64,000 nt of DNA from a virus. Positions within the stretch are counted from its first letter, which is position 1; every line of letters begins with the position of its first letter. The notes below the pieces were generated by a model. The model was not told where the DNA came from. It did not search any database and saw only the letters and a program-made list of their open reading frames with translations. Of this stretch, positions 6,861 to 60,255 are shown in pieces. The stretch covers positions 1 through 64,000 of the IMG/VR virus record IMGVR_UViG_3300037247_001169; one strand, given 5' to 3'. The translations under genes were made by a program, and so were the position numbers.

Positions 6861-6864
6861 CGCA

Positions 6865-7460: not shown

Positions 7461-7487
7461 GCGACCGTATCCTTGGCGTTGGTCGTT

Positions 7488-8253: not shown

Positions 8254-8309
8254 AGGCCCCTCAAGTCGCTTCGCGTGCTCCGGACTCCCCGGCGGCTTCC
8301 ACCCGAGCT

Positions 8310-8594: not shown

Positions 8595-8865
8595 CGGGGG
8601 CTCCGGTGGGATGCCATTCGGCAGATAACCTGTGGTCGCTACGACAGAGCCGATCCGGGCCCGCTTGCAACAATCCGCCGTAGGATAGATGGGCCAAACG
8701 ACGTTCTAACTCCTGACGCATCATGCGGTGCGACACAAGGCTATGAGATTGTTTGTTCACGAGTTCTCCAAGCGTTCGTCCGGGCCAGTGTCTCACCAAT
8801 TGCAGGACCGCCACATTCGCGCGATGGCTATCGGATGCGAGCTGCGCATCGGATAGAGGGCTCAC
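8587..8865 (-). CDS. Winged-HTH DNA-binding protein
   Basis: VRHWPGRTLGEL..RRLAHL..RLC pattern; GTG start coupled to the RecT stop. Confidence 0.55.
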   Translation of the reverse strand: MSPLSDAQLASDSHRANVAVLQLVRHWPGRTLGELVNKQSHSLVSHRMMRQELERRLAHLSYGGLLQAGPDRLCRSDHRLSAEWHPTGAPDA

Positions 8866-10705: not shown

Positions 10706-11282
10706 CCTTTGCTCCCTTGTTTCCCCGGTAGTTGTAAGCGTTCAGGTAACTCAGCCACCCGGCGGCGTCCGCAGGGTCATCGTGCTCTACCCACTTGGCT
10801 TTGCCATTACGACCGAGGTAGACGCAGCCTCGCACGTTAACGCCTATGCAACATTGCCTGTAGCCCTCGGTCTGCAACGGATGCCACCACTCAGGGGCGC
10901 CGGTTTTGATGTCGAGGAGGACGGTTGCTAGTCCAAGGTTCAAGAACGAACCACGTCTATCAAGCGTCCCGGCATAGCCGAGCCTCGCGTTACCGACCAT
11001 GACTTGCGTTAATGCAGGCACAAAGCGCGTTTCCGCCCGAAACGCGATCCACGCCTTCGCATACCCAATGTATTGCGGGCAGTAGATTTCGGCGGCTTCG
11101 ATGTCCAGCTCGCCCTTGTCATGCAGCTCCGTCAGCGTATCGATTGCCTTGCCCCGTTCGCGCCCCTCTTCGGTGTACCAGCGGGTGTCCACGCAGTTCA
11201 TCACCTTGAGGATATGCGTCACGCTCGGGACCGGGAGGCCGTTGATCTTGTACGTGTGAGTTGGCTCGTGGAATTCAATCAC
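10698..11282 (-). CDS. PD-(D/E)XK (Cas4-like) exonuclease
   Basis: VPSVTHIL, YAGTLD, LLDIKTG, QTEGY. Confidence 0.85.
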   Translation of the reverse strand: MIEFHEPTHTYKINGLPVPSVTHILKVMNCVDTRWYTEEGRERGKAIDTLTELHDKGELDIEAAEIYCPQYIGYAKAWIAFRAETRFVPALTQVMVGNARLGYAGTLDRRGSFLNLGLATVLLDIKTGAPEWWHPLQTEGYRQCCIGVNVRGCVYLGRNGKAKWVEHDDPADAAGWLSYLNAYNYRGNKGAKDD

Positions 11283-11553
11283 TTACCGCCTCCGCGGGCA
11301 ACTCGATGACGACTTCCGCGCGGGGCGGGGGTTTGGCCCCGGACTTGACAGCCAGCGCCTCATGGACCTTCGCAATGCACCCTTCAAGGGTCGGGGCGGA
11401 ATGCCAGCTAACCTCCTCGTGGTACAATTTAATCTCGCCAAGCCGGGGAGGGATGCCAACGTGACAGTTCATTTCTATCTGCAGCGCGGTGTAGGCAGCC
11501 GGCCATTCCGCTTGCAGCCGCTTTCCGATCTCGCTAGTTCGTAACGTTTCCAT
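11275..11553 (-). CDS. Hypothetical protein
   Basis: AGGAG RBS, coupled to downstream gene. Confidence 0.6.
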   Translation of the reverse strand: METLRTSEIGKRLQAEWPAAYTALQIEMNCHVGIPPRLGEIKLYHEEVSWHSAPTLEGCIAKVHEALAVKSGAKPPPRAEVVIELPAEAVSD

Positions 11554-11611
11554 TATTCACTCCTGTTTCACTGCCGACTCCGCGGGTTGGTCGTGGGGGC
11601 GGGGGGGGTTG

Positions 11612-11845
11612 TCATTCTTCATCCAACGCAATGCGGCCCTGCGCGTCCCTTTGGAACCCGTGTCTCGCATCCAAGCTCATAGTCCTGCACAAGCCGGCGG
11701 CGCAAAGGCGCAATATGCAACCGTCAGGCACGCATTTGCCCGCAGTATCGACTACACGCAGCTCGACCGTTCCATCCCCGACGTTGAATACGTCGATCTG
11801 CCTAATCGTCTCGGCCCCCGTTTCGCACACTCGCACCTTCATCAT
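11612..11845 (-). CDS. Hypothetical protein
   Basis: 77-aa ORF, ATGA coupling. Confidence 0.55.
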   Translation of the reverse strand: MMKVRVCETGAETIRQIDVFNVGDGTVELRVVDTAGKCVPDGCILRLCAAGLCRTMSLDARHGFQRDAQGRIALDEE

Positions 11846-12155
11846 TCACTCTCCAAAAGCTCGCCCCCGCCCCGACGTGTTGTAGCACGCGAGACGGGGA
11901 CTCTCTCGCCAGTGGTTGCATTAGAAAAGAGAACCTCCGCCGACTCTCGCCGACGGAGGTCTCCGGAGGGAAAGAGGTTTCGGAAAAACCACAGCGGGAA
12001 AATCCCGCACGCACAGCAGGCGTACCAGAGCACGTCGGCCCCCGACCGCCCTTGTCCGCCAGCTACAATGTCTTCAGGAATCCCGCTCATGGCGAACTCT
12101 CGCTCTGCCATCTCGTCAGCAATGGCATCGGCTTCCGCGAGTTCACGTTCGGAGT

Positions 12156-12499
12156 TCACGCCTTCGCCTCCGCGTCTTCGGATTTCGTTTCGGGTTTCGG
12201 CTCCTGTGCGAATGCTCTCCGTTTCACCATGACCGCGGCGCGTGCGTCCTGAAACAGCCTCACAGATTCTTCCCGCCTTAGCGGAATTGCACCGTTGTCG
12301 ATCGCGTCTATCCGCTTCCCTTTGGTCAAGTCGTAGTGAGGCAGGAACCGGTGGTTCTGAAACCATGCCCGTTCAGGCCGATACTCAGAGTGAACTCGTG
12401 CAGTTCGGCCAGCGTGTCGGCCGTCAGGTGGGCAACCCATCCGTAGGGCCAGGCTGAGGACTCCGGCCATTGGATTCCTCCGTCGACGTAGACGCTCAT
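12156..12499 (-). pseudogene. DUF4031-like gene with a 1-nt frameshift near 12,372
   Basis: MSVYVD..HLTADTLAELHEF..IGL in one frame, RAWFQ..PHYDLT..GA in another. Confidence 0.7.
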
Positions 12500-12568
12500 C
12501 GGGTGGGCTCCTGTGGGCTTGAGGGGTCCAACCGCCCAACCCGGGCCGTGCAGCTCGCCGTGCGTGAG

Positions 12569-12790
12569 TTATGGGCTCGCAGGGGCATTCTGTGGCGGCT
12601 CCGGAGTTTCAATGGGATTGGCGATTCCCGTCACGGATTCGACAGCCCGTTGAGCACCAACGGCCGCTGCAGCCGTCTCGATCGCCCAACGCACCCTGGA
12701 AATCGCCGTCGTGCAATAGGCCGGTGCTTTGCCTTCCAGCTTCGCTAGATCCTCATTTGGGACCTCCATCACCGTTACGCCCTGTGGCAT
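12569..12790 (-). CDS. Small protein, first gene of the leftward operon (possible regulator)
   Basis: AGGAGA RBS directly below a promoter. Confidence 0.6.
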   Translation of the reverse strand: MPQGVTVMEVPNEDLAKLEGKAPAYCTTAISRVRWAIETAAAAVGAQRAVESVTGIANPIETPEPPQNAPASP

Positions 12791-12815
12791 CGATTGTTCT
12801 CCTTTCGGCAGATCA

Positions 12816-12844
12816 AGTATAACCTACGCCTAGGCGGGATGCAA
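12816..12844 (-). promoter_or_regulatory. Sigma70-like promoter TTGCAT-N17-TATACT with palindrome CGCCTAGGCG in the spacer
   Basis: Read directly; AT-rich upstream tract. Confidence 0.7.
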
Positions 12845-12924
12845 ATACAATTTAGGATTTTTCTGGATATGCCGCGTAAGCGGGCGCTAGGCAGCGACCT
12901 CGTCGACGCCATCTGGTCGGGCCG

Positions 12925-13116
12925 CTAGCCCTTGCCCTTGGCTTTCGCCGCGTCTGCCAGCGTTCGCACGGCCTCAAGCCGAAGCCAGCCCGCGAGGACG
13001 GTGAGGTTCGTGCCGGACATTCCGCCGATGAAATCCCGTAGCGTCTCCTCCGCCTCGACTACCGTCATTATGATGGGCTTGCCAACGTCTGAGTTTTTCA
13101 GTTCTTTCGGGTCCAT
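12925..13116 (-). CDS. Hypothetical protein
   Basis: AGGAG RBS; last gene of the late operon. Confidence 0.55.
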   Translation of the reverse strand: MDPKELKNSDVGKPIIMTVVEAEETLRDFIGGMSGTNLTVLAGWLRLEAVRTLADAAKAKGKG

Positions 13117-13133
13117 GCGTGCTCCTGTTCTGG

Positions 13134-13409
13134 CTACAAATCGTCTCCGCCGTGTTGGGTGGCCTGGCGATGCACGAGATTGAAATCCTGTGCAACCCTC
13201 GCCGCGAGGAGTTGAAGGCGCGCCATTGATTCGGTTGGCGGCCCGCCCGGAACGTCGGACCGTGAATGCAGCTCGGTCACGACCGTCGTGACAGATGCGT
13301 CAGGGACTTGGTCGCGAAGCGCACCTTCCGCATCATAGAACGGCACGACCGTCTCGATGCTCTGGTCACCCGGGACGCTCACGGCTTTGAGAAAAAACTG
13401 GGTACCCAT
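13134..13409 (-). CDS. Hypothetical protein (tail-fibre associated)
   Basis: AGGAG RBS after the tail-fibre stop. Confidence 0.55.
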   Translation of the reverse strand: MGTQFFLKAVSVPGDQSIETVVPFYDAEGALRDQVPDASVTTVVTELHSRSDVPGGPPTESMARLQLLAARVAQDFNLVHRQATQHGGDDL

Positions 13410-13417
13410 GATATCTC

Positions 13418-16072
13418 CTACGAAACGGTGGTAGTGTCGTTTATCAGGTTCAAAGCGCCTAGCGCGTCCAAACAACTCTTCAACGCCCCCTCGGGATTAT
13501 CCCGAGCCCCGGATACAGTGGGCTTCACGATCGCCGTAGCCCCGCCGAAAAATACCATCTTGCTTGTGGCTTCTATGCGGATCAACGTGTTGGTTCCGCT
13601 GTCCCTGATGTTGAACCGGCCCGCCGTCGCGTATTCTACGCTTCCTCTGGCCGACCCACTTGGCCCCCACTCGCAAACCGAAGCAGTGAACGCCATCGCC
13701 TGAACGGTATTGGCCTGGAAGAAATACCCATCCCCGGTCGGGACATTGAAAATCGTACCGGCAGCCGCGTCGTGCTTGATGTAGCTGCCGGCAGCGGCCA
13801 ACGTGATTTGCGAGCCGGGCGCTGACAGTACCACGTCACCGGCATTCACCACCAAATCGCCGGCTTCGACCGTAACATCGAGGTTGCTCTCGATTGTGAG
13901 TGCCAGATCATTCGTACCGGCGAAATACTGCATGTCGCAGGCGGTCGTACTCCTCATCGTGGCTTTCCATTGCCCTACCAGGGCGTAGGCGCCACCCTGG
14001 TAGGAATAGAATGAAAAGCCGAACAGCTTCGTGCCGCTTACCACGTTGGCCGGTCCTGCTTTGGCTCGCCGATAGGAATGGAAAATCGAGTTACCCGCCG
14101 TATCGCTCTCAACCGTCAGGTACAATCCCGCGCTGCCACCCTCATTGTAGATGTACACATTCTTGTTCGCCGCTCCCGGCGAGAGGGTCGCGTTGACGCA
14201 CCAATTGCCGTTCTCGTCGACACGGCATTTCTCGGTGCCGGCGAGCTCGAACGTGATGGGGCCGGTGCCCGACGAGCCAATGGTCAACGCCGCGTTCGCT
14301 TCGCCGGTCGCCGTTATCAGTGCGGGATCACCGGTCGCCGCGTTCTTAACCGTCACTTCGTTCACGGCGGAACCGACGGAGGCGAACTTGAGAATCTCGT
14401 TGACGCTGCTGTCGACGATGCCGTCTTGGAACTCGACGCCGCCCCCAAACACCCAGTGGGGCGCTGCACGCAGCCACGCGAGGCCGCCGGTGGCCGCGTC
14501 GTTTTTGCATTGGATGACGACATTGTCGGCCAGCGCGGCATGGCCAAATATGCCGAGGCCCGCGGCATCCCTCATCGTCCGATCCGCACCGGCAGACACC
14601 TGAACCGTATTTGCGGCGCCGGATGCAGCCGCGGCGGTTACGGCAAGGCCGAGATCCAGATCCGCGTCCGGTGCCGTGATAGTGCGCGTATTCCCGGCGG
14701 TTATCGCTGAGAGCTGAAAATCCATCTCTTTGGTAACGTCGCCCTCGTCGAAGAGATGGAAGGCATTGTCGGCGAACTCCGTTGTAACACCGCTGGCGCC
14801 GCCGGCCGCCGTCAGCGGTGTAGCGCCCCGCAGATCCACGGTAGACACGTGCGCCCAGGTGCCGCCGATCAAACTCATAGTTACGCGGGCTATGAGGAAT
14901 CCGGTTTGCGAATCGACATTGAATTCGCTGGGGATCCTAAACACATCGTAGCCGTTGATATCCCCTTCTGCCGATGCCTGCTTATTGTAACTCCCGGTCG
15001 ACAAGTTCATCGCCAACGGAGAATACTCGCCGCCCTTGTTGGCAATCCCCCAGATTACCCAGTTGAAGTATTTCTTAACCGCTACACCGTTAGCATCATT
15101 CGTCAACGTCTCCAGGTCCGTCACGGGATCATACGCAGCGCCGTTCTGATTGATGATCAGAATTGCATCACCCGTCGCGGTATCCAGCGCAGGTGTTGTG
15201 TGCTTGTGCATCTGGCGAACGACGCCAGCCGTCACTGCGGCGTCGACCGTCGCCCCGCCACCGGCGACGGTCATCGTTAGGACAACCCCGGTTTTGTAGA
15301 TCGCATGTCGCGACCGTATAGCATCGGTTATGTGAACTATGTGCCCCAGACCGCCGGTCCCCTGAGCATGCTCGTTAATGTTGTGATTGGCGTATACGCC
15401 CTTGGTCTGAACGTATCCCGCTGAAGGAACCAGGAAGTAGCCGATCTTGATGTGCGCGATTGGGTCCGCCGGCCAATCGCTTGTAGACTTCGTCAGCGCT
15501 TTCGTGCTCTGTAGTATGTAAATGAAATTACCTGTCGGGCTGGTGTCTGAACCCGCATCGAGAGGAATGGTGGCAGGGCTCGGCGTGCAATCCAATGTCG
15601 TCGCGCCGTCGGAGAAGAGCATCGTCAGATCGCCGCCCCCGGCCTGCTCGATCGACATCGTCACGACCGTACCGTTGCTCGTGACCAAGGCGTTGAAAGA
15701 CTCGATGAACGTGCCATGGAAGAATGGGTGTATGTGTGCAGACGCAGCGGCGCCAATGTCGGTCAACACATTGGCAGGTGAGCGCCACTCGAGACCCTGG
15801 TCCTCGGAGTCCTTGACCCGGAGCATGTAGAGATCGGTCCCCGGCTGAAAGGCGGCGAAGTCGCTGTCTGAATCACTGACCACGAACTGGCCGGGCGTAC
15901 TCGCCTGAATGTTCCCGCCCTTGGCTTCCGCGCCCGTCGCCTGGGTGAACGTGACGGTAAACGGATTGCTCCCAGACAGATAATTGATATCAGCGGAAAG
16001 GCGCTGTAGCGCAAGGCGCACTTCCTCGAACGACTTGACGTTGGAGCGCACTGGGACAATCGACCTTGGCAT
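13418..16072 (-). CDS. Tail fibre/spike protein
   Basis: 884 aa, T/G/A-rich beta content, C-terminal KPTVSGAR..ALKSCLDALGALNLINDTT, position at end of the virion module. Confidence 0.75.
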   Translation of the reverse strand: MPRSIVPVRSNVKSFEEVRLALQRLSADINYLSGSNPFTVTFTQATGAEAKGGNIQASTPGQFVVSDSDSDFAAFQPGTDLYMLRVKDSEDQGLEWRSPANVLTDIGAAASAHIHPFFHGTFIESFNALVTSNGTVVTMSIEQAGGGDLTMLFSDGATTLDCTPSPATIPLDAGSDTSPTGNFIYILQSTKALTKSTSDWPADPIAHIKIGYFLVPSAGYVQTKGVYANHNINEHAQGTGGLGHIVHITDAIRSRHAIYKTGVVLTMTVAGGGATVDAAVTAGVVRQMHKHTTPALDTATGDAILIINQNGAAYDPVTDLETLTNDANGVAVKKYFNWVIWGIANKGGEYSPLAMNLSTGSYNKQASAEGDINGYDVFRIPSEFNVDSQTGFLIARVTMSLIGGTWAHVSTVDLRGATPLTAAGGASGVTTEFADNAFHLFDEGDVTKEMDFQLSAITAGNTRTITAPDADLDLGLAVTAAAASGAANTVQVSAGADRTMRDAAGLGIFGHAALADNVVIQCKNDAATGGLAWLRAAPHWVFGGGVEFQDGIVDSSVNEILKFASVGSAVNEVTVKNAATGDPALITATGEANAALTIGSSGTGPITFELAGTEKCRVDENGNWCVNATLSPGAANKNVYIYNEGGSAGLYLTVESDTAGNSIFHSYRRAKAGPANVVSGTKLFGFSFYSYQGGAYALVGQWKATMRSTTACDMQYFAGTNDLALTIESNLDVTVEAGDLVVNAGDVVLSAPGSQITLAAAGSYIKHDAAAGTIFNVPTGDGYFFQANTVQAMAFTASVCEWGPSGSARGSVEYATAGRFNIRDSGTNTLIRIEATSKMVFFGGATAIVKPTVSGARDNPEGALKSCLDALGALNLINDTTTVS

Positions 16073-29387: not shown

Positions 29388-29434
29388 AAAAAACGGCGGG
29401 GGCGGGCGCGGACAAACACGTCCGCACCCCGCCG
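29388..29434 (-). terminator. Rho-independent terminator after the capsid genes
   Basis: CGGCGGGG..CCCCGCCG stem followed by T6. Confidence 0.75.
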
Positions 29435-29443
29435 CACTAGCGC

Positions 29444-41070: not shown

Positions 41071-41390
41071 CGAAAGCTTACACCAATTCGTGAAACAGGC
41101 AAGGAGTCCCTAGAAGTCGTAGATTGGGAATTGGTGGGCGGGGGGTAAGTACAGGGGGGTAGCGCCTCGCGCGATGGGGGGTGTACTTTGGTTTTCGCTG
41201 GCGGGCTTGGAGTCCCATCGACTTTTGGCGCTTGTTATCAGCCCGACCGTCGATATTGGCCTGGAATCGATGATCCTGCGCCAATACTACGTCCCATAAG
41301 GCATAATACGTCACATTCGATTATCTGGACGTGACCGGGTGGCGATTGTGCCCACGGCGAAGTGGTTGGGTCGCATTGAACATAGCTCTC

Positions 41391-41590
41391 CATGCCCCTG
41401 CCTCCGATGCGCCCTTCATGCGCCCTTCATAGCAGACTGTCCTGCGTCCAAGCGCGCCCATGCTCGCCATTGCCACACTGTAGACTGATGGGGAACGGGG
41501 TGGAAACGTCCAGCTTTGTCCAGCTTCACCCACATCCAGGCTGTATCCAGGGTACTTTTGGTCATCCGTTGTCCAGCTTTGTCCAACTGC
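41391..41590. repeat. Short tandem repeats in the putative genome-end region
   Basis: ATGCGCCCTTC x2 (41407-41428); GTCCAGCTTT-type 10-mers at 41508-41526 and 41571-41588. Confidence 0.6.
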
Positions 41591-42029
41591 GCCCACCTGG
41601 ATGATTCGACTTGTGCTTCGTTACGTGCGCACCCGTTCCCAGGGCCAGTGTCCATTATCGACACACACTGGCATGTCGCGGGGCGACCGGCTTTCGCCGG
41701 GCTGGAGTTGTTACGGTAAGCGCACTCCAGGTGCCATGTTCCGATAACGCTCCTAAATTACGCCGGAGCGTCTAGGCTGGGCGTGCTCGGTTGCGTGGGA
41801 TCGGTGCGGGCTTCCAGGCTCAACAGCTATGGGCCTTGCGGCGCTCCGCTGCCTGTTGCCTGGTTACTCATAGACCGTCCTGCATCCGCCATTGTGGCCC
41901 GTTCGAGCTGGGCCGATTAACTACCAGGTGGCGGGCTTCGTCCCGGCCACAACAGGGCTATCCGGGCCTTCGCCTGCCCTGCATTCGTCCTACCCACAAC
42001 CCGCCTGGTAGGCCTACGCCTGCGCAATG

Positions 42030-42067
42030 AAAAGCCCCGCGAAGCATGGTCAGTGGTCTGCGGGGCT
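42030..42067 (-). terminator. Terminator/attenuator hairpin
   Basis: AGCCCCGC..GCGGGGCT followed by TTT. Confidence 0.65.
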
Positions 42068-42125
42068 GAAGTAGTGGCAATGCCACCACGTTCAAGGCTA
42101 GATTGTAGCCACTGACCATGCCTCA

Positions 42126-42154
42126 AGCCTACACCACGATGTGACGTTTGTCAA
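42126..42154 (-). promoter_or_regulatory. Promoter TTGACA-N17-TAGGCT
   Basis: Read directly; ATG 6 nt downstream. Confidence 0.7.
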
Positions 42155-42241: not shown

Positions 42242-42288
42242 TTGACCTGAGTAACAAGTGTTGTATACTTCATTTGTGAGTAACGAGT
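42242..42288 (+). promoter_or_regulatory. Early promoter TTGACC-N16-TATACT with direct repeats TGAGTAAC(A/G)AGT
   Basis: Repeats at 42248-42259 and 42277-42288; AGGAG RBS follows. Confidence 0.7.
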
Positions 42289-42300: not shown

Positions 42301-42489
42301 GTGACGATGACAGCAAAGCTAATCGACGTCGTGTATTCTCCGGAACACTGGAATCAGAACTGTGGTTCCATGATCCCCGAGGCGTGGGAGGCGCTCGTTG
42401 ACACTGGCGACGGTGTGTGTCGCGTGTTTGGGCATACCCGCGATGAAGCACTGACGAGCGCCGGAACGGAATTCCCTGAGATCCAATGA
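42301..42489 (+). CDS. Early hypothetical protein
   Basis: AGGAG RBS after the promoter. Confidence 0.6.
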   Translation: MTMTAKLIDVVYSPEHWNQNCGSMIPEAWEALVDTGDGVCRVFGHTRDEALTSAGTEFPEIQ

Positions 42490-42561
42490 ACAAACGTAGT
42501 GGCCCGCGACGGCGTGACGTCCGGGCCGTGGCCAGTACCAAACTGTGAGGAGATACTGACA

Positions 42562-42855
42562 ATGGCAAGTCTACTTCAAACAGCCGACGGTCGCATGGTC
42601 AAAGTCGGCGACAAGGTCTATTTCTACTGGGGTGGCGTGGACGCTCGCACCCAGAAAGCACGGGTTACACATGGGGTGGTCGAGGCCGTCACCCAACGGT
42701 CGCTCATGCTGATTATCCGACGCCACACCGGCAAGTGCAGTTCTCGGCACGCTTGGCACGTCTTTACGACGCGCGAAGTATTGGAAGCTGACCGCAAAAA
42801 TACTCCGTTCGAGCGCGTCAAGCGGTCCCGTGTCACCGGAAAGTCGGTGTCGTGA
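42562..42855 (+). CDS. Early hypothetical protein (SH3-like)
   Basis: GAGGAG RBS; VKVGDKVY. Confidence 0.6.
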   Translation: MASLLQTADGRMVKVGDKVYFYWGGVDARTQKARVTHGVVEAVTQRSLMLIIRRHTGKCSSRHAWHVFTTREVLEADRKNTPFERVKRSRVTGKSVS

Positions 42856-43190
42856 TGACGCTCAAGCGACGAACCAGATGGAAGCGTGTCATCCGTTTAC
42901 CATTGCTCACATGGAAACTCTACCAAATCGAACACCTCAGCCTGTGGATGGCGTTCCGGTTTGCATGGCTGACGTTGAAATAGAATCACTGCCCGCGCGC
43001 CGCACGAACGGCCGCGGGTGGAATATCGTTCGCGGGTGCTCCTGTCGCGAGCTTCGAGCGTGACGATGTGGTACGAATGCTGAAGCTCGCAGTCGAACGA
43101 GAAGGCACGGCGCGCCAACGATACCAAGACCTCGTGAGTAAGTTTTAGGGGCCAATCAGCCGCCCCGGCGGCGATTTACGGAGGAGTATT

Positions 43191-43445
43191 GTGAGACGCA
43201 ACCAACGCTACTACATGGCCAACGGATTCCACCACACCGAGACCTACGTGGTCGCCAAGCGCGGCCGCGTGTCGACTGCGGCCATGATTGCAGCGGAGAA
43301 GCGGCTGTGCAAACAGGACGATTGCAAGTGCGGCATGAGTGAGGCCAGTAATCCAACCGACGGCCAGCGTCACGGGATACAGGGCGAGCCAGAGCTGTGT
43401 CTGGTGAATGATGGCGGCGGGTACTGGCGATTGGAACGACGTTAG
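43191..43445 (+). CDS. Early hypothetical protein
   Basis: GGAGGAG RBS within the repeated motif. Confidence 0.65.
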   Translation: MRRNQRYYMANGFHHTETYVVAKRGRVSTAAMIAAEKRLCKQDDCKCGMSEASNPTDGQRHGIQGEPELCLVNDGGGYWRLERR

Positions 43446-43481
43446 GACCAGCCGCACGGCGGCGATTTACGGAGGAACGAT

Positions 43482-43853
43482 GTGATGACGACAGAAGCAG
43501 AGAAACCGATTGAAGTCCTGCGGCAAAAACGCAACCTGGAATCCGGCGAAACGGTGCTACTACGCACGGGAATCGAAGAAGTGAAGCCGCTCGTGAAGAT
43601 TACGATGGTTATCCTAAAGCGGCTGTACGAAGAGAAGCCGATCGTCCTCTACGAGCTTGCCCAGCTCTGCCGTGACCGTGACCACGAACCATGGGGCAAG
43701 TGCGGCGATGATCTCGTCGAGAGAAAACTGATTCAGAAAACAGAAAACGGCTATCATGTCCACGACTCCATTCGCAACATCGTCTTGGCTGCGATCGACG
43801 GCGAAGGTGTGGATATGGTACTCCGCTCACCGTTGGCGCCGAAAGACCCCTAA
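43482..43853 (+). CDS. Early hypothetical protein
   Basis: GGAGG RBS within the repeated motif. Confidence 0.7.
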   Translation: MMTTEAEKPIEVLRQKRNLESGETVLLRTGIEEVKPLVKITMVILKRLYEEKPIVLYELAQLCRDRDHEPWGKCGDDLVERKLIQKTENGYHVHDSIRNIVLAAIDGEGVDMVLRSPLAPKDP

Positions 43854-43882
43854 CCAGCCGCCCCGCGGCAAGGAGACGAATC

Positions 43883-44020
43883 ATGGATTGGAACTTCGGA
43901 AGATGGGTATCGAGCATGACCTGGCCGGGCATTGTCGCCTGGCTGTCGATGGTCATGCATACGTACCAGCAGCACGGCCCGCCGTGGGACGTGTTCAACT
44001 TCATCGGGGGAGGACCATGA
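43883..44020 (+). CDS. 45-aa early protein
   Basis: AAGGAG RBS; ATGA coupling. Confidence 0.45.
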   Translation: MDWNFGRWVSSMTWPGIVAWLSMVMHTYQQHGPPWDVFNFIGGGP

Positions 44021-44295
44021 ACGAAGCAACAATCAAAGTGACGTCACTCTGCGGCTGTGCGTGGGAAGCACGGGTCGACCCCGATACCCTGCTCGACACT
44101 ACCGTCCGGGTTGACCTTGTGTGCCCCACGCACGGCAAGCTCGGGGTGAGACTCGAGCTGACGAGCCCAGCCAACGTTGACCTGCTGACTGCGTGCAAGG
44201 TCGCGCGAGAATGTCTGTTGAATGGCAGTCCGCCCGGGGTGCCGCTATTGGCCACCGAAGCCGCCATCGCCAAGGCCGAAGGAGGAACGCCATGA
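44017..44295 (+). CDS. Early zinc-binding protein
   Basis: CGC..CPTH; DLLTACK..AAIAKAEG tail. Confidence 0.6.
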   Translation: MNEATIKVTSLCGCAWEARVDPDTLLDTTVRVDLVCPTHGKLGVRLELTSPANVDLLTACKVARECLLNGSPPGVPLLATEAAIAKAEGGTP

Positions 44296-44501
44296 GCAAG
44301 CAAACTTTCCCGCACACGAACTACGATTGCGGCTGTCAATTTGTCCCGCGTGACGACGGTTGGGCGATTTGGACTATGTGCCCGCTGCACGAGGCCGCCC
44401 CCGACCTGCTGGCAGCGTGCAAGGCGTTCATGTCCGGCCCACCAGCGGGCGTAGTCGGAAAGATGCGGGCCGCCATCGCCAAGGCCGAGCCCGACGCATG
44501 A
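44292..44501 (+). CDS. Early zinc-binding protein
   Basis: CGC..CPLH; AAPDLLAACK..AAIAKAE tail. Confidence 0.65.
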   Translation: MSKQTFPHTNYDCGCQFVPRDDGWAIWTMCPLHEAAPDLLAACKAFMSGPPAGVVGKMRAAIAKAEPDA

Positions 44502-44752
44502 CCGGCAACCCCCACAAGAAAATGGGTCCGGCCCCGATCGAAGGGGAATACCTCACCAAACAGCAGATGATTCGGTTAGACCCGACGCTCGAGGAGGCGA
44601 TTGTCAATCGCGCAGGACAACGGTCGTTCGCCGCATGGATCAGGTGGGCGGCAAGACGGGCGCTGGGTCTACCCGAACGCCAGCCGGAGCCCCGCGCCGA
44701 CAGCAGCGAGGATGGCGGCCGCAAAGACCCCTCGGAGCCAACGGCGGTTTGA
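44498..44752 (+). CDS. Ribbon-helix-helix-like regulator
   Basis: QMIRLD..RSFAAWIRWA pattern. Confidence 0.6.
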   Translation: MTGNPHKKMGPAPIEGEYLTKQQMIRLDPTLEEAIVNRAGQRSFAAWIRWAARRALGLPERQPEPRADSSEDGGRKDPSEPTAV

Positions 44753-44992
44753 CGTCTGGTCCACTTCGTGCTCGTCGCGCGACTCCTCGAGGCTGGCTGT
44801 CCGCGCCATCAGGCCGAGTTTGTCATTGTACCCGCGAATCGCCTTGTCGATCCGGTGGACCGTGGCCTTAATCTCCTCCGTGTCCTTTGTCAACGTCCCG
44901 ATACCAGCTTCCAACATCGAGATCCGGCGGATGTGGTCCATGACCTGGTCACTGCTCGCGCCACAGCTCGGCGTTGATGGTGCTTTCGCCAT
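44669..44992 (-). CDS. Coiled-coil protein with C-terminal TM helix (holin/XhlA-like)
   Basis: Coiled coil then WLRGVFAAAILAAVGAGL; own leaderless promoter. Confidence 0.55.
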   Translation of the reverse strand: MAKAPSTPSCGASSDQVMDHIRRISMLEAGIGTLTKDTEEIKATVHRIDKAIRGYNDKLGLMARTASLEESRDEHEVDQTSNRRWLRGVFAAAILAAVGAGLRLAFG

Positions 44993-45042: not shown

Positions 45043-45665
45043 AAACCCGCTCGTACCTTTTGGTTGCCTCGCTGAGAGTGGCACACTCGAGCCTTTTGGT
45101 TGGCTTCCGGTTTTTGACTCGCTTCCGCCAGATGGTTGACTCCGGCATTCTGGCTCGCTCGGGATCAGTGGGTGCCTGATGAAGCGTGGCTCGCTCCGCG
45201 GCTCTGGTTGCCTAAGTCCTCTGTGGCACGCTTGACTCGTGTGGGTCCCTTCTGAATCATGGCTCGCTTACGCAGCTTGGGTGTCTACTGGCGAATGGCT
45301 CGCTCGGCTCGCCCTGGTTGCCTTGTACAGCGTGGCTCGCTCCGAGATTGTGGGCGCCTTCGTCTATCTGGCTCGCTTGTATTCGATGGTCGCCTTGCTT
45401 ATTCTGGCTCGCTCCGATCTTCTGGTTGCCTCTCAACGTTTGGCTCGCTCTCACCGAATGGGTGGCTGTTTCGGCCTGGCTCGCTTACGCTCTGTGGTTG
45501 CCTGAGTCATCATGGCTCGCTCCCGCGTCCTGGTGGTCTCGGAAAAACTGGCTCGCTCCCGCGCGTTGGTTGTCTCAATCCGCTTGGCTCGCTTACTGTA
45601 CCTGGTTGTCTGTGCTGCACTGGCTCGCTCGTCACAAATGGTCGCCTTTCGCGCCATGGCTACGC
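45043..45665 (-). ncRNA. TIGR guide-RNA array, downstream (17 units)
   Basis: 36-nt period; plus strand TGGCTCGCT-N9-TGGTTGCCT-N9; 13 exact edge repeats. Confidence 0.92.
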
Positions 45666-46703
45666 AACGTGAACCTTGCCCAGCTTAGCCTCCGAGTACG
45701 GCGGGGCAACCTCCAGACCCTCAATCTCCCGCCATGCCTTGTACAGATCGATCAGGAACATCTTGATCATGTACCGGATGGCCATGTTGTGGCGCCTCAG
45801 CTTGGACGTCACAATGTGGCCGTCCTCATCCTTTTTCTTGTCGTTGTGGATGCCGTACTTCGTGTGAGACTCCATCCGGTGCTTGTAGTCGTAGTAGACC
45901 TTCGCGTAGGGCGAATCGCCAGCACGAAGGAACGACGCCCCGAGCACTCCCACGAGCTTCGTTTTCAAGAACGGGTTGAACGTGATGCCCATGCGGGTCG
46001 CGGGCTTCCCGTCCTTGTCCTTGTATTCGACCTCGCGCAAGTGCTCCTTTTTCTTCGATCGGCCGCTGCTCGCCGCCTGGTAGCGAGCTACCGACAGATC
46101 GTCAACGATCAGCAGAAACCCGTTGCCATGCTCAGACATCTTGGCGTTGGGCGGTGGGCCGATGAAGGCCCTTGGGACCGTCACGTCTTCCGTGAACGTC
46201 TCCACAAGAGTCCAGTAGGTTACGCAATCAAGCCCAGCGTAGGCCCACATGCTCGACGGATACCGCGCCTTGTGGATGTCGAACTCGCTGACGATGACAC
46301 CGGCCATTGCCGGGCCGACTCCCTTGACCTTCAACAGGAACTCATTCCAGATTGCGAATTCCGTCAGAATCCTGCCTAACCTGGAGAAATGGTCCGTCTC
46401 GGCTTTCTCCAGGCCGACGTATTGGGCCAGCAGACACAACTCCGTGTACGTGCTGATCACCTCGTCGCCCTTGAACGTCGCTTGCCTCGGGAACGTCGTC
46501 ACGCCGTCCGTCAGCTTCTTGTACCGCATACGAAGATCGGCGAGTACCGCTTTGGCGTCCTCTTCGATCTCCTCTTCTTTCTCGCCCGGCTTCTGGCCGA
46601 GCTTCGCCTTGAAGTTTCCTACGATCCGATTGCCCATCTGGATTCTGAGCTTTTGGATGTCGTAGGCTCCGCGGACTACGGTCCGCAATTGTTCACGTTG
46701 CAT
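45660..46703 (-). CDS. tasA: Tas protein (TasA-type; Nop/IS110-like RNA-binding domain, no nuclease)
   Basis: LR..IQKLRIQMGNRI coiled coil, KGVGP HhH, SSMWAYAGL, FNPFLKTKL, RRHNMAIR; no N-terminal RuvC; CAGGAG RBS; flanked by arrays. Confidence 0.85.
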   Translation of the reverse strand: MQREQLRTVVRGAYDIQKLRIQMGNRIVGNFKAKLGQKPGEKEEEIEEDAKAVLADLRMRYKKLTDGVTTFPRQATFKGDEVISTYTELCLLAQYVGLEKAETDHFSRLGRILTEFAIWNEFLLKVKGVGPAMAGVIVSEFDIHKARYPSSMWAYAGLDCVTYWTLVETFTEDVTVPRAFIGPPPNAKMSEHGNGFLLIVDDLSVARYQAASSGRSKKKEHLREVEYKDKDGKPATRMGITFNPFLKTKLVGVLGASFLRAGDSPYAKVYYDYKHRMESHTKYGIHNDKKKDEDGHIVTSKLRRHNMAIRYMIKMFLIDLYKAWREIEGLEVAPPYSEAKLGKVHVA

Positions 46704-46720: not shown

Positions 46721-47231
46721 GGGTTCGCTTTGCCGTTTTGGGTGTCTAGTTTGTGGTGGCTCGCTAATCCGCACTGGGCTCCTCGTGGACTTTGGCACGC
46801 TCATTACTTCCGGTTTCCTCCCAGCACTTGGCTCGCTTAACGCTCATGGCTGTCTTTTAGCTCTTGGCTCGCTCTTGGCTTCTGGTTGCCTCTCAACGTT
46901 TGGCTCGCTTGTCACGCGTGGGTGACTGCAACACTCTGGCTCGCTTCGTACACACGGGCGTCTTGCCTCCAATGGCTCGCTTTCACGCTCTGGTTGTCTA
47001 CGATGACATGGCTCGCTCGTGCTCACTGGGTGCCTTAAGCCAGCTGGCACGCTCTTTTCGGTTGGTTGACTGTACTCGCTTGGCTCGCTCGTGTTCTGTG
47101 GTAGCCTCACGCGCGCTGGCCCACTTGGTCACCTGGTCGCCTTTGCAATTCGGTACGCTTGATGTTCATGGTTGCCTTTCAGATCCTGGCTCGCTAAGTA
47201 GCCTTGGGCGACTCCGAACCTATGGCTCGCT
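46721..47231 (-). ncRNA. TIGR guide-RNA array, upstream (14 units)
   Basis: Same alternating 9-nt repeats; 10 exact edge repeats. Confidence 0.92.
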
Positions 47232-49989: not shown

Positions 49990-50349
49990 TTAGCCATCCT
50001 CAAACTCCGCTTGATAAGCCTCGCACGCTGCCCGCGCATACTCCCAACCCGCGGGGTCAACAAACGCACAGTGGCCGCCGCGCAACTGCTCGCCATTCGG
50101 CAACGTGACGGGCGCGACAATCCCCGTGCGGACCTGGTAGCTGCCCGCCAGCTCTTTGAGCACGGCGCGAATGCTGTCCGTGGTCATGTGGAAATCTTTC
50201 GCTAGGCTCACGATCGACACGCCACGCTGCCACGTTATGCGTCCGTTGTAATTGCCGTGGCCACCACCGCACGGCAGCGTGCAGAGGATTTCCATGTGTA
50301 GGCTGCGAGTCTCCAGCGCGATTCCCGTCGCTACGTCATCCATGGGCAT
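49990..50349 (-). CDS. Hypothetical protein
   Basis: Conserved with 1-346; GAGGAG RBS. Confidence 0.7.
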   Translation of the reverse strand: MPMDDVATGIALETRSLHMEILCTLPCGGGHGNYNGRITWQRGVSIVSLAKDFHMTTDSIRAVLKELAGSYQVRTGIVAPVTLPNGEQLRGGHCAFVDPAGWEYARAACEAYQAEFEDG

Positions 50350-50355
50350 TGGCGG

Positions 50356-52351: not shown

Positions 52352-52449
52352 CCCTGTCCTCTCAATTCGCCGCCGGGCGAGCGTTGTATGTCATGTTTCC
52401 GTGCCCACTGCTCCGCAGAGCCCGGTCCCGTGGGCGGGGGCGGTATTAT

Positions 52450-53016
52450 TTATTCTGCCGATAGGACGACACCAACACGGTTCTTGGCATTGCTCAATTC
52501 GTCCCAGTCGACAAACAGAAATTCGTTTCCATCTGTCGGGTTTTTGCGACTATGGCGTCTGATCCATGCACCGTCGCCGAGATGCGCCCCGACGAACTCG
52601 TACAGATCCTTCGTGTAGCATATTCCGGCAGCCAAAAAGGCTCCCCGCCGGCGCGGTTCTGCGACGTATGCGTGTACTGTCAGCGTAGGATATAACCATC
52701 CAGAACGGATGGCGTCTATTCGCTTTCGCAGCTCCGTCTCGGCGCCCGTCGTCCGCTTTGACCGTATCGTGAACGTATACCACGGCTCACCCCATTGCAC
52801 GCGACTCGCCAAGCCCCTCATACGGCCATTCGCTTGCTGGATATGCCATCCGTCTATGCCGGCCAGCGTATCCAAGCATTGGCTCAAACTCTTCTCCGTC
52901 ACGCTTTCAACCGCCACCAAAGTTCCATCTCCGCATTTGCCCTTGATCGCGGGCCACACAACCCGCTCGAAATCGTAGGCACTATCGCTAAGGTCGCATG
53001 CAATGTCACTCCGCAT
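52450..53016 (-). CDS. Methyltransferase-associated protein (possible PD-(D/E)XK fold)
   Basis: LDTLAGIDGW..LASRVQW..TFTIR..TE..K motif. Confidence 0.6.
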   Translation of the reverse strand: MRSDIACDLSDSAYDFERVVWPAIKGKCGDGTLVAVESVTEKSLSQCLDTLAGIDGWHIQQANGRMRGLASRVQWGEPWYTFTIRSKRTTGAETELRKRIDAIRSGWLYPTLTVHAYVAEPRRRGAFLAAGICYTKDLYEFVGAHLGDGAWIRRHSRKNPTDGNEFLFVDWDELSNAKNRVGVVLSAE

Positions 53017-54190
53017 GCACGTCCACTCCGCGCTCTTCTGCGATATCGCACATCTCACGCGAGCTATCGCATCCGAGCCCGATGCGACCTAGCTTTTTCG
53101 CTGCGAGCAAGAACGTCCCCGTCCCGGCAAATGGGTCTACGATGACCCCACCCTCGGACGTGCTGTGACGTATGAACCGCTCGGCCAGCACGTCTGGCTT
53201 CTGCCATTCGTGAAAGCGGTCGCCCTGACGACCGTCCGGGGCACGAACGTCCTGCACGCTCCAACGTTCGTTGTGGATCGGACAGTTCAGGTCTGGCGCA
53301 TCCCCCCCGACGAAGTAGAGGACCGCTTGCCAGTTGGCCTTGTAGGCGCCCTTCAGTGACGGACCCAGCGTATTGCGGTATGTCCACACCAGGACCTGGG
53401 CGAGCGACACGTCAGCACATCGTTGGGCCGCCCCAAAATAGGCGTGAAGCTCCACCGGATAGGCGCCGATGCAGACGAATGCTCGGCCGGTTGGCTTGAC
53501 GTGCTTGATCGCTTCGGGCAACCAGGCGTTGGCGAAAGCCTCGATGTCCGGTATGTCCGTAGCGTAGGGCGGGTCCGTCAACAGCAGGTCGCATTCGGGC
53601 TGCTCGCCGAGCCAGTCCTCCCAGCCAGCAAGATGCAATTCGGCCTTGCCTTTGGCGGTCCCCGCCGCCTGCTTTTGAAGGTACAGAACGTCGGCCTGAG
53701 CCAGCGTCGTACACTTGCCGTCCTTGACGGCCTTGAAGATGGCCTTCTGTCGCTTCCGGTCATCGTTCAGGCGAGCGAGACGATACACGTCGCCGGTCTT
53801 CAGTACCCGTCCGGTGGCGGATGCTAGGTCTATCCAGCCCTCGCGTAGCTCCCCGAGGACGTGTACGCCCTGCCAGCGAGATGATTGCTTATGGTTGATG
53901 CCTAGATCTAAAAGTGGGCTGCCTTCTTGGCAGTCCACTTTTTTGCCTACCCCGCGGGCACCATGCTGCTTAGGTATATCCTCCAGCAGCTCGCCAGCTC
54001 GGCCCTCAGCCCGTATCCTGAGCTTGCAGACCTCATCTTGAACCTCGCGGGTTTCGCCGATCTCGCGGGCGTAGGTTTGCAGCGCCTTCGACTTGTCGAT
54101 GATGACCTTCACCTCTGGGATCGTGGTCGCCTGCGACAACGCCGACCGCATCGCGTCGTAAGCTACTATGTTTGTGTCTGCTTTAGCCAT
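53006..54190 (-). CDS. DNA adenine/N4-cytosine methyltransferase with N-terminal helical domain
   Basis: TDPPY motif IV; HEWQKP; VDPFAGTGT motif I. Confidence 0.9.
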   Translation of the reverse strand: MAKADTNIVAYDAMRSALSQATTIPEVKVIIDKSKALQTYAREIGETREVQDEVCKLRIRAEGRAGELLEDIPKQHGARGVGKKVDCQEGSPLLDLGINHKQSSRWQGVHVLGELREGWIDLASATGRVLKTGDVYRLARLNDDRKRQKAIFKAVKDGKCTTLAQADVLYLQKQAAGTAKGKAELHLAGWEDWLGEQPECDLLLTDPPYATDIPDIEAFANAWLPEAIKHVKPTGRAFVCIGAYPVELHAYFGAAQRCADVSLAQVLVWTYRNTLGPSLKGAYKANWQAVLYFVGGDAPDLNCPIHNERWSVQDVRAPDGRQGDRFHEWQKPDVLAERFIRHSTSEGGVIVDPFAGTGTFLLAAKKLGRIGLGCDSSREMCDIAEERGVDVHAE

Positions 54191-54299
54191 CCCTGACTCT
54201 CGTTTCACCCTATAGGAAAACAACAAACGCCCCGGCCGAACGCTGGCCGGGGCGCCGTGAAGGATCGACCCGCCGCACGCACGGCGGGATCGTTCACAA

Positions 54300-54357
54300 A
54301 TGAAAAGCCGCCGCTGGGCTTGAGCTGATTGGCACCAGAGTCACCCGAGACGGCGGC
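54300..54357 (-). terminator. Terminator/attenuator hairpin
   Basis: GCCGCCG..CGGCGGC followed by TTTT. Confidence 0.6.
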
Positions 54358-54396
54358 GTCGAAACCTAATTGTACCAACTCTAGTGCCATAATTCT

Positions 54397-54424
54397 AGCC
54401 TACTACATTCTCGGACGTTTGCAA
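54397..54424 (-). promoter_or_regulatory. Promoter TTGCAA-N16-TAGGCT (leaderless)
   Basis: ATG 6 nt downstream. Confidence 0.6.
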
Positions 54425-54653
54425 GCTGTGCCGAATGCGGACACAACTCGCCGCCGGGCGAGCGCTTTATGTCACGTCGCGGTCCGCCTCCAGCCACTGC
54501 TCAACCGTTATTCTCAGATCGAGCAAACAGGAATCGCACAGGTCGATGTGCAGATTCTTTTCATCAACGGCGTTCCGGCTGGCGATTGTTGCCGCCATTT
54601 GGCAGCCGCACCCCGCCAAGTCACGCTTACATCTGTCACAGATAGTCATCGTC

Positions 54654-54962
54654 TCATCCCTTCGCTGTGTCTCCAGGCCACCGAATCCGAATCCGGCAGC
54701 CGCACGTCCGCACGATATCCTTGCCGGCCGTAGGCTTTGGCCGCGACATTGCACCGCAATTCGCGCACTTCGAGGATGGGGTCACCAGCTCCACGTTGTC
54801 CGCACACGCCTGGGCGGCCGTCATTCCTCGGCGGTGGCACATCGCGTGGTCGCACTTACGGCACGCTCGGCCGACGCTCCAGGTTGCCTCGTAGCACTCC
54901 GCGCCTTTCGTCGGGACGCTCAGAAACGGGCCACACAGTATAGCGTTCAGTTCACCGGTCAT
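54654..54962 (-). CDS. Cys-rich hypothetical protein
   Basis: Homolog of 1931-2236. Confidence 0.7.
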   Translation of the reverse strand: MTGELNAILCGPFLSVPTKGAECYEATWSVGRACRKCDHAMCHRRGMTAAQACADNVELVTPSSKCANCGAMSRPKPTAGKDIVRTCGCRIRIRWPGDTAKG

Positions 54963-55088
54963 CCGCCACCTCGCCGCCGTATGCGTTTCCACAGCCATTT
55001 CCCAATCGGGGGGCCGTCGATAATTCCGTCCCAAATGAAATGGAACCCCGCCAGGGCAAACATGACAATAAAGCACCACACGAAGAGT

Positions 55089-60182: not shown

Positions 60183-60255
60183 GGGCCGGTGCGGGATTTG
60201 AACCCGCGTCTTAGGCTCTCCAGGCCCACGTTGTGCCAGACTCAACCAACCGGCA
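60183..60255 (-). tRNA. Atypical tRNA-like gene, anticodon GGA (Ser), short variable loop
   Basis: T-arm GCGGG-TTCAAAT-CCCGC, D-stem GTTG/CAAC, anticodon arm TGGGC-CTGGAGA-GCCTA, acceptor GCCGGT/ACCGGC. Confidence 0.65.

Follow-up and report, generated by a model that had tools for sequence, protein, structure and literature searches.

A candidate leader element with predicted pairing between its 5' end and a terminator-like loop in a phage record from marine sediment

The stretch of DNA analysed here (the window) comprises bases 1-64000 of the 72,880-bp IMG/VR virus record IMGVR_UViG_3300037247_001169. On its minus strand, between positions 42154 and 41958, a promoter is followed by a segment that is perfectly complementary to the loop of a terminator-like hairpin further downstream, which raises the question of whether this complementarity belongs to a functional RNA and, if so, of which kind. 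The analysis revealed a recurrent, covarying RNA design that is more than chance: the 5' segment and the loop form a potential helix (P1) with the same register in three copies of the element, each placed at a promoter and enclosing a terminator-like hairpin (T). By its kind, the design counts as a leader or attenuator-type element, unusual for the pairing of its 5' end with a terminator loop, and it falls into no described family.

Anatomy and recurrence of the element

The copy that raised the question (copy 1) is built from the following features.

42149-42154, minus strand: -35 hexamer TTGACA, separated from the -10 hexamer by a spacer of 17 nucleotides (nt)
42126-42131, minus strand: -10 hexamer TAGGCT, with an ATG 6 nt later
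42117-42119, minus strand: ATG
42109-42119, minus strand: 5' strand of P1, AUGGUCAGUGG, and probable transcript start, deduced from the 6-nt distance to the -10 hexamer
42102-42107, minus strand: -10-like TACAAT (+13..+18), in the loop region of a local hairpin GGCUA/UAGCC (42096-42110)
42071-42089, minus strand: 8-bp hairpin GUGGUGGC-AUU-GCCACUAC, present in copy 1 only
42033-42067, minus strand: terminator-like hairpin T, with the stem AGCCCCGC (42060-42067) / GCGGGGCT (42033-42040) and a 19-nt loop (42041-42059)
42046-42056, minus strand: 3' strand of P1, CCACUGACCAU, inside the loop of T
42025-42032, minus strand: U-rich tail UUUCAUUG; the stem of T is followed by TTTCATT (UUUCAUU in RNA)
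41958-42119, minus strand: open reading frame (ORF) of 53 codons, from the 5' AUG through T

The promoter (TTGACA-N17-TAGGCT, with the ATG 6 nt later) was present as described in the original prediction, except that its -35 hexamer occupies 42149-42154, one base off the range implied there. The 13-nt segment GCATGGTCAGTGG (42109-42121) is indeed exactly complementary to 42044-42056 in the loop of T, these being the only two exact sites in the window, and both the TACAAT following the 5' segment and the 53-codon ORF reading through T were found. As DNA, the inverted repeat covers 16 nt with one mismatch, and complementarity reaches 42124; as RNA, it gives a helix of 17 bp with 2 G-U pairs, longer than any other such helix on the record's minus strand.

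The same design had been claimed for sites at 1.4 and 54.3 kb, where it is present (copies 2 and 3), but not in the form of independent loci. Bases 1-15,010 of the record are colinear with 50,004-72,868 at 72-96% identity (matching blocks are, for example, 1-351 = 50004-50354, 8876-11299 = 62878-65304 and 14675-15010 = 72533-72868), and on this self-comparison the record is composed of two diverged versions, A and B, of one region of ~15 kb flanking a shared 35-kb core. Because the record carries two versions of the region, copies 2 and 3 are, by this alignment, positional orthologues, and one phage therefore has two loci (copy 1 plus copy 2 or 3) and not three. Both adjoin a conserved block (1943-2251 = 54669-54976) on its downstream side, with their ATGs at 1471 and 54390, and their homology is visible in 8/12 like nucleotides at the start, a hairpin ahead of the promoter and AUCAG(U/C)UC flanking the 3' arm downstream. 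Copies 1 and 3, in turn, have the 11-mer GGCTTTTCATT of their tails exactly in common, and likewise TAGGCT.

1373-1506, minus strand: copy 2 (variant A), with -35 TTGACA (1501-1506), -10 GAGAAT (1478-1483) and AUG (1469-1471)
1462-1471 and 1405-1414, minus strand: 5' and 3' strands of P1 in copy 2, with CACAAT at 1455-1460
1382-1435, minus strand: composite hairpin of copy 2, with an outer stem CCCGCC (1430-1435) / GGCGGG (1382-1387) and an inner stem GAATTCC (1420-1426) / GGAATTC (1391-1397)
1373-1381, minus strand: tail of copy 2, TTCTCTTTC, in which the T-run is interrupted
54298-54424, minus strand: copy 3 (variant B), with -35 TTGCAA (54419-54424), a 16-nt spacer, -10 TAGGCT (54397-54402) and AUG (54388-54390)
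54378-54389 and 54330-54341, minus strand: 5' and 3' strands of P1 in copy 3, the latter in a 37-nt loop
54369-54374, minus strand: TACAAT of copy 3 with TGGTACAAT, an extended -10
54351-54357 and 54307-54313, minus strand: stem of T in copy 3, GCCGCCG / CGGCGGC, with the tail TTTTCATTT at 54298-54306
54226-54256, minus strand: second strong terminator-like hairpin in the leader of copy 3 (12 pairs, 10 of them G-C, then TGTTGTTTTC), directly preceding the DNA methylase gene 53006-54226

With the A of the ATG as position 1, positions 2-10 are paired in all three copies (27/27 cells). Pairs 2, 3 and 10 are invariant, and each of the pairs 4-9 shows changes on both sides among the copies, as illustrated by pair 9, which is U-A, C-G and A-U. 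Between copies 2 and 3, pairs 4, 5 and 9 have changed on both sides, and one U-A pair has become U-G; the G-U pairs are compatible solely with RNA of the minus strand. Covariation had been named beforehand as the test on which the design could fail, and the compensatory changes at pairs 4-9 speak for it: a pairing kept in this manner points to an undescribed regulatory RNA, as judged from the sequences of the copies. Because the arms were noticed through their complementarity, this argument depends on the register being shared and on copies 2 and 3 being homologous; a MAFFT alignment leaves the arms of the copies out of register.

The recurrence was evaluated with a descriptor containing no promoter term, which asks for a terminator-like stem with a T-rich tail and a loop of 12-45 nt pairing over at least 10 bp with the 110 nt upstream. 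It gave 4 matches on both strands of the 72,880-bp record, namely the three copies and 29393-29435, compared with a mean of 0.5 and a maximum of 2 in 20 dinucleotide shuffles, and 1 match without promoter context in 70 other phage or metagenome loci (521,169 bases). The match at 29393-29435 was discarded as an ordinary long-stem terminator 3' of a structural gene. Fifteen ATGs of the record stand in a lenient promoter context, and positions within 3 nt of them make up 7.2e-4 of all positions; 3/4 descriptor matches begin there. The hexamer (T/C)ACAAT follows 1-3 nt past the 5' arm in 3/3 copies, at +12..+22, out of a total of 37 occurrences in 145,760 positions, and of the 4 occurrences of ACAAT(N)TAG in the record 3 are within the modules, that of copy 2 being placed after the terminator. 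Finally, the 106-nt RNA of copy 1 folds with -50.6 kcal/mol (z = -4.9), and 0/200 shuffled sequences were as stable.

Searches for relatives were negative within their respective scopes. As the original prediction had it, no Rfam family, including those of the C4 type, was found at threshold: Rfam 15 detected only a tRNA in the whole window, and the best scores for the three copies in E-value mode (sX13, 17.2 bits vs. 50; Spot_42, 21.9 bits vs. 80) were far under the gathering thresholds. INPHARED phages gave no DNA match, close or distant. When the neighbouring proteins and TerL were compared with IMG/VR, no relative carrying the region was obtained, TerL matching only at 24-28% identity, and a search of IMG/VR with a TerL alignment gave relatives of at most 34% identity only, with none in genome contigs. 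There are TerL relatives at 79% and 69% identity; the metagenome loci reached via the TerL alignment were too short (1.7 kb upstream in one, with the element lying 5.6 kb upstream). A neighbouring protein of 241 amino acids (aa) retrieved only itself from 5.8 billion proteins. Pattern scans with the shared motifs gave 0 matches in IMG/VR and 0 in genome contigs; a looser pattern had 1 match in IMG/VR, which was rejected as an ordinary leaderless ORF with TACAAT inside the coding sequence; by eye, its product looks like a small excisionase-type DNA-binding protein. The sole public sequencing run found to contain the stretch is a marine sediment DNA metagenome, from which the record may derive, with no RNA run among those listed; its contigs are identical across copy 1 and offered no variants of it.

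Protein families were assigned with Pfam (81 distinct ORFs) and PHROGs (73 ORF queries, 63 + 10), which together matched RecT, an exonuclease, RusA, HNH, two methylases, DUF1353 and replication proteins. No integrase, repressor, sigma factor or Q/N-type antiterminator and no recombinase, transposase or reverse transcriptase family appeared among the scanned ORFs, negatives that are weak because most ORFs match no family. Two readings of the repeats as DNA elements were dismissed. Because the arms differ among the copies, they are no operator pair of a DNA-binding protein; an invertible DNA switch, a miniature inverted-repeat transposable element (MITE) or a retron does not fit spacers of only 39-52 bp, differing arms and the lack of the corresponding enzyme families in these scans.

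A possible gate between 5' end and terminator

Transcription reaches the loop earlier than the 3' arm of T, so that P1 should form first, and in nascent RNA ending before that arm the P1 pairs have probabilities of 0.65-1.0, mostly 1.0, in all copies. Nested folds from the AUG to the U-tract yielded energies for P1/T of -36.9/-36.9, -26.3/-29.2 and -31.5/-33.4 kcal/mol in copies 1, 2 and 3, and the equilibrium favours T (0.73-0.96). The pairing had been proposed to favour termination, whereas this nested-structure energy model has P1 competing with T. The two share no nucleotides, and the loop leaves 3/5, 1/7 and 7/16 spare nt on the 5'/3' sides of the P1 strand in copies 1-3. The 3' spacer is always the longer one, which suits the needs of an H-type pseudoknot; by a geometric estimate, P1 and T would coexist easily in copy 3 but only under strain in copies 1 and 2. 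T was rejected as a bidirectional terminator, its opposite strand having no T-run.

We tentatively propose, with somewhat less than even confidence, that the element is a cis-acting gate, in which the state of the 5' segment (free or occupied) would decide between a terminated RNA of ~90 nt and read-through. The host-type promoter would start transcription at or beside the AUG, the first 10-13 nt (the 5' strand of P1) would pair with the loop of T, 35-55 nt downstream, and P1, being formed first, would gate what T can do. The outcome would be either the release of the ~90-nt RNA with its 5' end tucked in or read-through into the long leader and the genes behind it, which are those of the structural side in copy 1 and, in copies 2 and 3, variable cargo (a DNA methylase, for example). 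Occupation or loss of the 5' segment could flip the outcome, the likeliest effector being a 70S ribosome on the leaderless AUG. The (T/C)ACAAT at +12..+22 may hold RNA polymerase at about +27..+33, where approximately the first 12-17 nt would be out of the enzyme if the distance from lambda PR' applies. What stands of the switch seen in the original prediction is the recurrent pairing of 5' end and terminator loop; because both partners are on one transcript, its simplest reading is an intramolecular one. The two possible signs of the effect appear evenly balanced, with P1 acting either as an antiterminator or as a helper that lets the large-loop terminator close as a pseudoknot. If P1 helps T, loading and following of the ribosome would both favour read-through, and every conserved feature would be explained. 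If it blocks T, the terminator would act mainly on transcripts without the 5' arm, which would lead to the nested-promoter RNA considered below.

The AUG of the gate is possibly a landing site for the ribosome rather than the start of a protein gene. The ORFs beginning at the three AUGs have 53, 79 and 61 codons and all traverse T, and ORFs of at least 53 codons are opened by 39% of all ATGs in the record. Their GC content at third codon positions (GC3) is 0.55-0.60 (0.59 in copy 1) compared with 0.64-0.81 for real genes, they contain no regulatory codon runs, and both the peptides and the reading frame over the terminator differ among the copies. Given their non-coding composition and unconserved peptides, they were dropped as protein genes; on its composition, the 53-codon ORF, whose translation had been supposed, is probably not a protein gene. 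The sequence GGFSF shared by the peptides of copies 2 and 3 was rejected as a conserved peptide, since it is the terminator arm and U-tract read in frame. Leaderless starts are plausible in this phage because two further promoters lie 6-7 nt before the ATGs of coding-type ORFs. The gene starting at 44992 (GC3 0.80) has exactly the -10 hexamer and spacer of copy 1, and the 16-mer TAGGCTTGAGGCATGG of copy 1 is identical to the promoter and start of this leaderless gene (44669-44992).

Leaderless-type starts of this sort appear to recur on the minus strand at 44992, 41067, 54390, 42119 and 1471, with the pattern TTGNNN, 16-17 nt, TA(G/A)GCT or similar, 6-7 nt, ATG, and their repetition hints at a host rich in leaderless mRNAs. 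Such mRNAs are common in several bacterial phyla and their phages, and to our knowledge little is known of their transcription-translation coupling and regulation beyond a few leaderless short-ORF attenuators.

A narrower form of the gate, which we regard as a doubtful though attractive possibility, is a translation-licensing attenuator for leaderless transcripts that would represent a new class. A 70S ribosome and a downstream large-loop terminator, through its loop, would compete for the AUG segment, a sigma-dependent pause at the -10-like hexamer would time this competition, and the polymerase would proceed only if a ribosome has engaged the 5' end (or, in the mirror version, has not). If true, such regulation would need no dedicated protein, metabolite or antisense gene, and each phage, with its two orthogonal copies, would gate both a swappable cargo cassette and the structural-gene side.

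Several points weigh against the gate. A translating ribosome would itself melt T, and the ribosome logic would be clean in one direction only. The transcript start, termination at T and the pause are inferred, the U-tracts are short or interrupted, and the energy model handles no pseudoknots. The equilibrium hinges on the assumed start: with 2 nt added upstream, P1 reaches 0.99 in copy 1 and 0.95 in copy 2. Because of the 7 and 16 spare loop nt beside the P1 strand, P1 and T of copy 3 could coexist, in which case there might be no switch. The complementarity of copy 1 extends 3 nt 5' of the likely start, which an AUG-started transcript does not need. There are three copies only, all in one metagenomic record and two of them orthologues, the sites were first picked for complementarity, and no homologue of the region outside the record was found in the searches made. 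Lastly, template-switch 'correction' of quasi-palindromes in DNA could mimic compensatory changes without any RNA function.

This last point belongs to a reading without dedicated function, in which ordinary promoters and terminators would carry repeats that arose by inverted duplication or quasi-palindrome correction. The copy 1 repeat, which is perfect and passes the likely start by 3 nt, looks as a recent DNA event would, and the tiny sample selected for complementarity and the lack of outside conservation agree with it. It is set against a design that, across the genome, is confined to these promoter starts and is seldom met in 521 kb of other phage DNA, with the same register from the AUG in all copies, six covarying pairs and no broken core pair, with the hexamer at the same place, and with one core pair of copy 3 being a G-U that fits the transcribed strand only. 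We consider this reading very unlikely.

The hexamer bears on another explanation, the one advanced in the original prediction. A hairpin RNA of ~60-70 nt, reaching from a nested promoter at (T/C)ACAAT to T, would display the anti-5'-end sequence in its loop and act in trans on nascent transcripts of the upstream promoter. Covering of the 5' arm and AUG would allow their own T to form or block leaderless translation, resulting in dose-dependent negative feedback with a specificity private to the locus. The hexamer is present in 3/3 copies, as an extended -10 (TGGTACAAT) in copy 3, and the RNAs predicted to begin there form clean terminator hairpins, in which most of the complement occupies the apical loop region. 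Each loop matches its own 5' end only; for the copy 1 13-mer, any other site in the window has at least 2 mismatches. A free 5' end that pairs with a hairpin loop provides an efficient geometry for antisense action, as in IS10 RNA-IN/RNA-OUT. A trans effect of a short terminated isoform on the read-through isoform from the same promoter is also described, in the portion of the report used here, as possible for Gifsy-1 IsrK (PMC4825925). The nested promoter itself is doubtful: the -10-like hexamer has no -35 in any copy, whereas the other 9 candidate promoters listed all have one of the TTG type, and copy 2 has the weaker CACAAT. The hexamer could equally be a sigma-dependent pause signal, as proposed in the passages used here for HK022 putL, where a -10-like element at +23..+28 of the early transcribed region may pause the polymerase and aid folding (PMC9378689). 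For full-length transcripts, intramolecular pairing should moreover outcompete pairing in trans. Because neither an integrase nor a repressor was found in the ORF scans, the supposed immunity setting akin to P4 or P1 is not evident, and neither these scans for temperate or immunity functions nor Rfam for C4-type RNAs gave a sign of one. We rate the trans reading as unlikely.

A folded 5' element might instead bind the transcribing RNA polymerase in cis and, alone or aided by a phage protein, confer resistance to downstream terminators on it, by analogy to the put RNAs of phage HK022. According to the available part of the description, put comprises ~70 nt in two stem-loops with a short triplex, binds the beta' zinc-binding domain and contains no terminator (PMC9378689). 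Two elements per genome directly after a host-type promoter and at the 5' end of the transcript would agree with this, as would a structure kept more than its sequence and an early -10-like hexamer, both being described in the passages concerned for putL and putR (PMC9378689). The second strong terminator between copy 3 and its first gene would give such an element something to overcome, and a few bases are common to the otherwise different copies (AUG, the G10-C pair, ACAAU(C)UAG and GGCUUUUCAUU). On the other side, put has two stem-loops and a triplex and no pairing of 5' end and terminator loop, whereas hairpin and U-tract lie within the element here. Furthermore, no extra terminator was detected after copy 1 in the stretch scanned (the leader after copy 2 was not scanned), and no antiterminator protein family turned up in the ORF scans. 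We regard a put-like RNA as improbable.

The spacers in the loop are relevant to a third explanation, which dispenses with switching. P1 and T would together make up one compact pseudoknot, in which both ends are shielded from 5'-dependent and 3' exonucleases, and the product would be either a stable ~90-nt RNA functioning in trans or a protective 5' cap structure of the read-through mRNA. The helix begins at nt 1-2 of the likely transcript in all copies, as is required for protecting a 5' end, and the spacers 3' vs. 5' of the P1 strand (5/3, 7/1 and 16/7 nt) suit an H-type pseudoknot. Copy 1 is also followed by ~1 kb without a convincing ORF, and a separate promoter at 41080 serves the next gene. 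However, a simple local hairpin would give a 5' end the same protection, the conserved AUG and -10-like hexamer would stay unexplained, and the near-equal energies of the nested forms would be unexpected. In addition, the 13-mer of copy 1 has no trans target in the window, the loops of copies 2 and 3 not having been searched. Such a stabiliser seems quite unlikely to us. Should the element be only a stable small RNA or a DNA-repeat by-product, its interest would be modest.

Surroundings of the copies and layout of the record

Copy 1 is located back to back with a plus-strand promoter, TTGACC-N16-TATACT (42242-42269), which drives a small plus-strand cassette. Three exact occurrences of TGAGTAACNAG bracket the copy 1 promoter, and no other mismatch-free site exists in the window.

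42248-42258, plus strand: TGAGTAACNAG
42277-42287, plus strand: TGAGTAACNAG
41860-41870, minus strand (inverted): TGAGTAACNAG

The plus-strand pair surrounds TTGACC-N16-TATACT, and the inverted occurrence lies 380-420 bp off, inside the leader of copy 1. From this arrangement, the sites look like operators for a DNA-binding regulator that could loop out the copy 1 promoter.

Downstream of copy 1, no convincing ORF is found for ~1 kb, and 41314-42030 (~700-800 nt) contains no ORF of coding-type composition. This stretch holds TGGACAAAGCTGGAC twice (41508-41596) in an iteron-like manner, two tandem units of the 11-mer ATGCGCCCTTC (41407-41430) and a long-range helix formed by 41921-41931 and 42001-42011. 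Short pieces of it (41351-41487 and 41644-41716) recur in other contigs of the same marine-sediment run. The ~1-kb stretch ends at the leaderless-type promoter at 41080, beyond which the terminase and structural-side genes follow. The part at 41314-42030 could serve as an origin, for packaging or as a long structured leader. Copies 2 and 3 head non-homologous cargo, consisting of small Cys-rich genes in variant A and of an N6/N4 DNA methylase and other genes in variant B. The leaders after the elements are 100-1000 nt long.

The record has a GC content of ~60%, and its minus strand carries nearly all genes. Its two-version layout reflects either an assembly that walked through two strains or a terminal duplication that is long and diverged. 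The record spans ~1.3 genome lengths, with cassettes swapped between the variants, a situation masked by the CheckV label '100% complete, linear'. The plus-strand cassette at 42304-44501 is small and stands amid an otherwise minus-strand genome; a partial paralogue is present in variant B only, at another insertion place (record positions 70052-71138, with 43160-43463 = 70289-70592 at 85% identity), and by this comparison its mobility is moron-like. No module resembling copy 1 occurs beside the paralogous cassette at 70 kb. For two proteins of the cassette, the ESM Atlas gave weak leads only, such as a HicB/UPF0150-like fold for the 61-aa protein of the first gene.

Further features were noted elsewhere in the window.

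60183-60255, minus strand: single tRNA-Ser (GGA) gene in the early region of variant B
45048-45648: array of phased, degenerate ~36-bp repeats with ~17 periods
46757-47120: array of the same kind with ~10 periods
45660-46703, minus strand: gene for a protein of 347 aa without Pfam match, flanked by the two arrays
54447-54462, 52366-52381 and ~1533-1550: intergenic hairpin CTCGCC-CGGC-GGCGAG or near variants

In the arrays, the boxes TGGCTCGCT and TGGTTGCCT alternate at 18 bp, and the arrays look like iterons or a centromere-like site. The intergenic hairpin, which precedes the promoters of copies 2 and 3 as well as the gene at 52351, is possibly a repeated intergenic element or else a short terminator.

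Comparison with known systems

The element shares with HK022 put, as described in the part of that report used here, the position of a promoter-proximal cis element at the 5' end of a transcript, the presence of two elements per genome and a structure kept more than the sequence (PMC9378689). It is set apart from that description by its predicted fold, which consists of a helix between 5' end and loop and a terminator hairpin. The short terminated RNA and read-through mRNA expected from one promoter, the leader pairing downstream and a short form that could compete in trans resemble Gifsy-1 IsrK as presented in the parts drawn on here (PMC4825925). IsrK differs in controlling the ribosome-binding site of a downstream ORF and activating translation, again as far as that description extends, and Rfam indicates no sequence similarity (PMC4825925). 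Likeness to the late control of lambda at PR'/tR' lies in a constitutive-looking host-type promoter, an early -10-like element and a terminator within ~100-200 nt, on the basis of parts of two reports (PMC4825925, PMC9378689). Copy 1, like a late promoter of the lambda type described in them, heads the structural-gene side. In all three copies, (T/C)ACAAT is at +12..+22 and T at +34..+90; pausing at this hexamer would follow by analogy. In contrast to the lambda Q systems, no Q-family protein was found in the ORFs scanned with Pfam (81) and PHROGs, Q needs no pairing of 5' end and loop, and of the two loci present here one lies in the early region.

With the CI RNA of P4 and the C4 RNA of P1/P7, the element has in common a small structured RNA in the leader of the operon to be controlled, an exposed segment complementary to a site within the transcript, premature termination or blocked translation as the presumed outcome, and a specificity private to the phage type. 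Those RNAs are excised from the leader by processing and act in trans in lysogens, and their targets lie upstream and downstream, not at the extreme 5' end. Here, the partner consists of the first 10-13 nt, including the AUG at +1, and its complement is in a terminator loop; the same operon transcript offers one complementary target, the 5'-terminal segment, with no second site downstream for copy 1. The ORF scans and Rfam, which gave no temperate-phage genes and no model match, separate it further from P4 CI and C4. In hok mRNA, too, long-range pairing of the 5' end locks the RNA inert, but hok pairs its 5' end with the 3' end and encodes a toxin, and no toxin-like peptide was seen here. In IS10 RNA-IN/RNA-OUT, the free 5' end of an mRNA with its start codon likewise pairs with a hairpin loop, the partner coming from the opposite strand.

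The element provides a concrete structural descriptor for searching other uncultured phages, and because each copy has its own pairing specificity, it might be used as a small orthogonal genetic part if the proposed pairing operates as described. The leader-ORF attenuators, such as trp, pyrBI and the mycobacterial leaderless cysteine-responsive short ORFs, also combine a short 5' ORF with alternative pairings that include a terminator, and in pyrBI the ORF traverses the terminator as it does here. Unlike them, the element has no regulatory codon runs, and its start-codon segment pairs with the loop of the terminator and not with an arm; if true, the pairing of a 5'-terminal start codon with a terminator loop would be a compact new link of 5'-end accessibility to termination.

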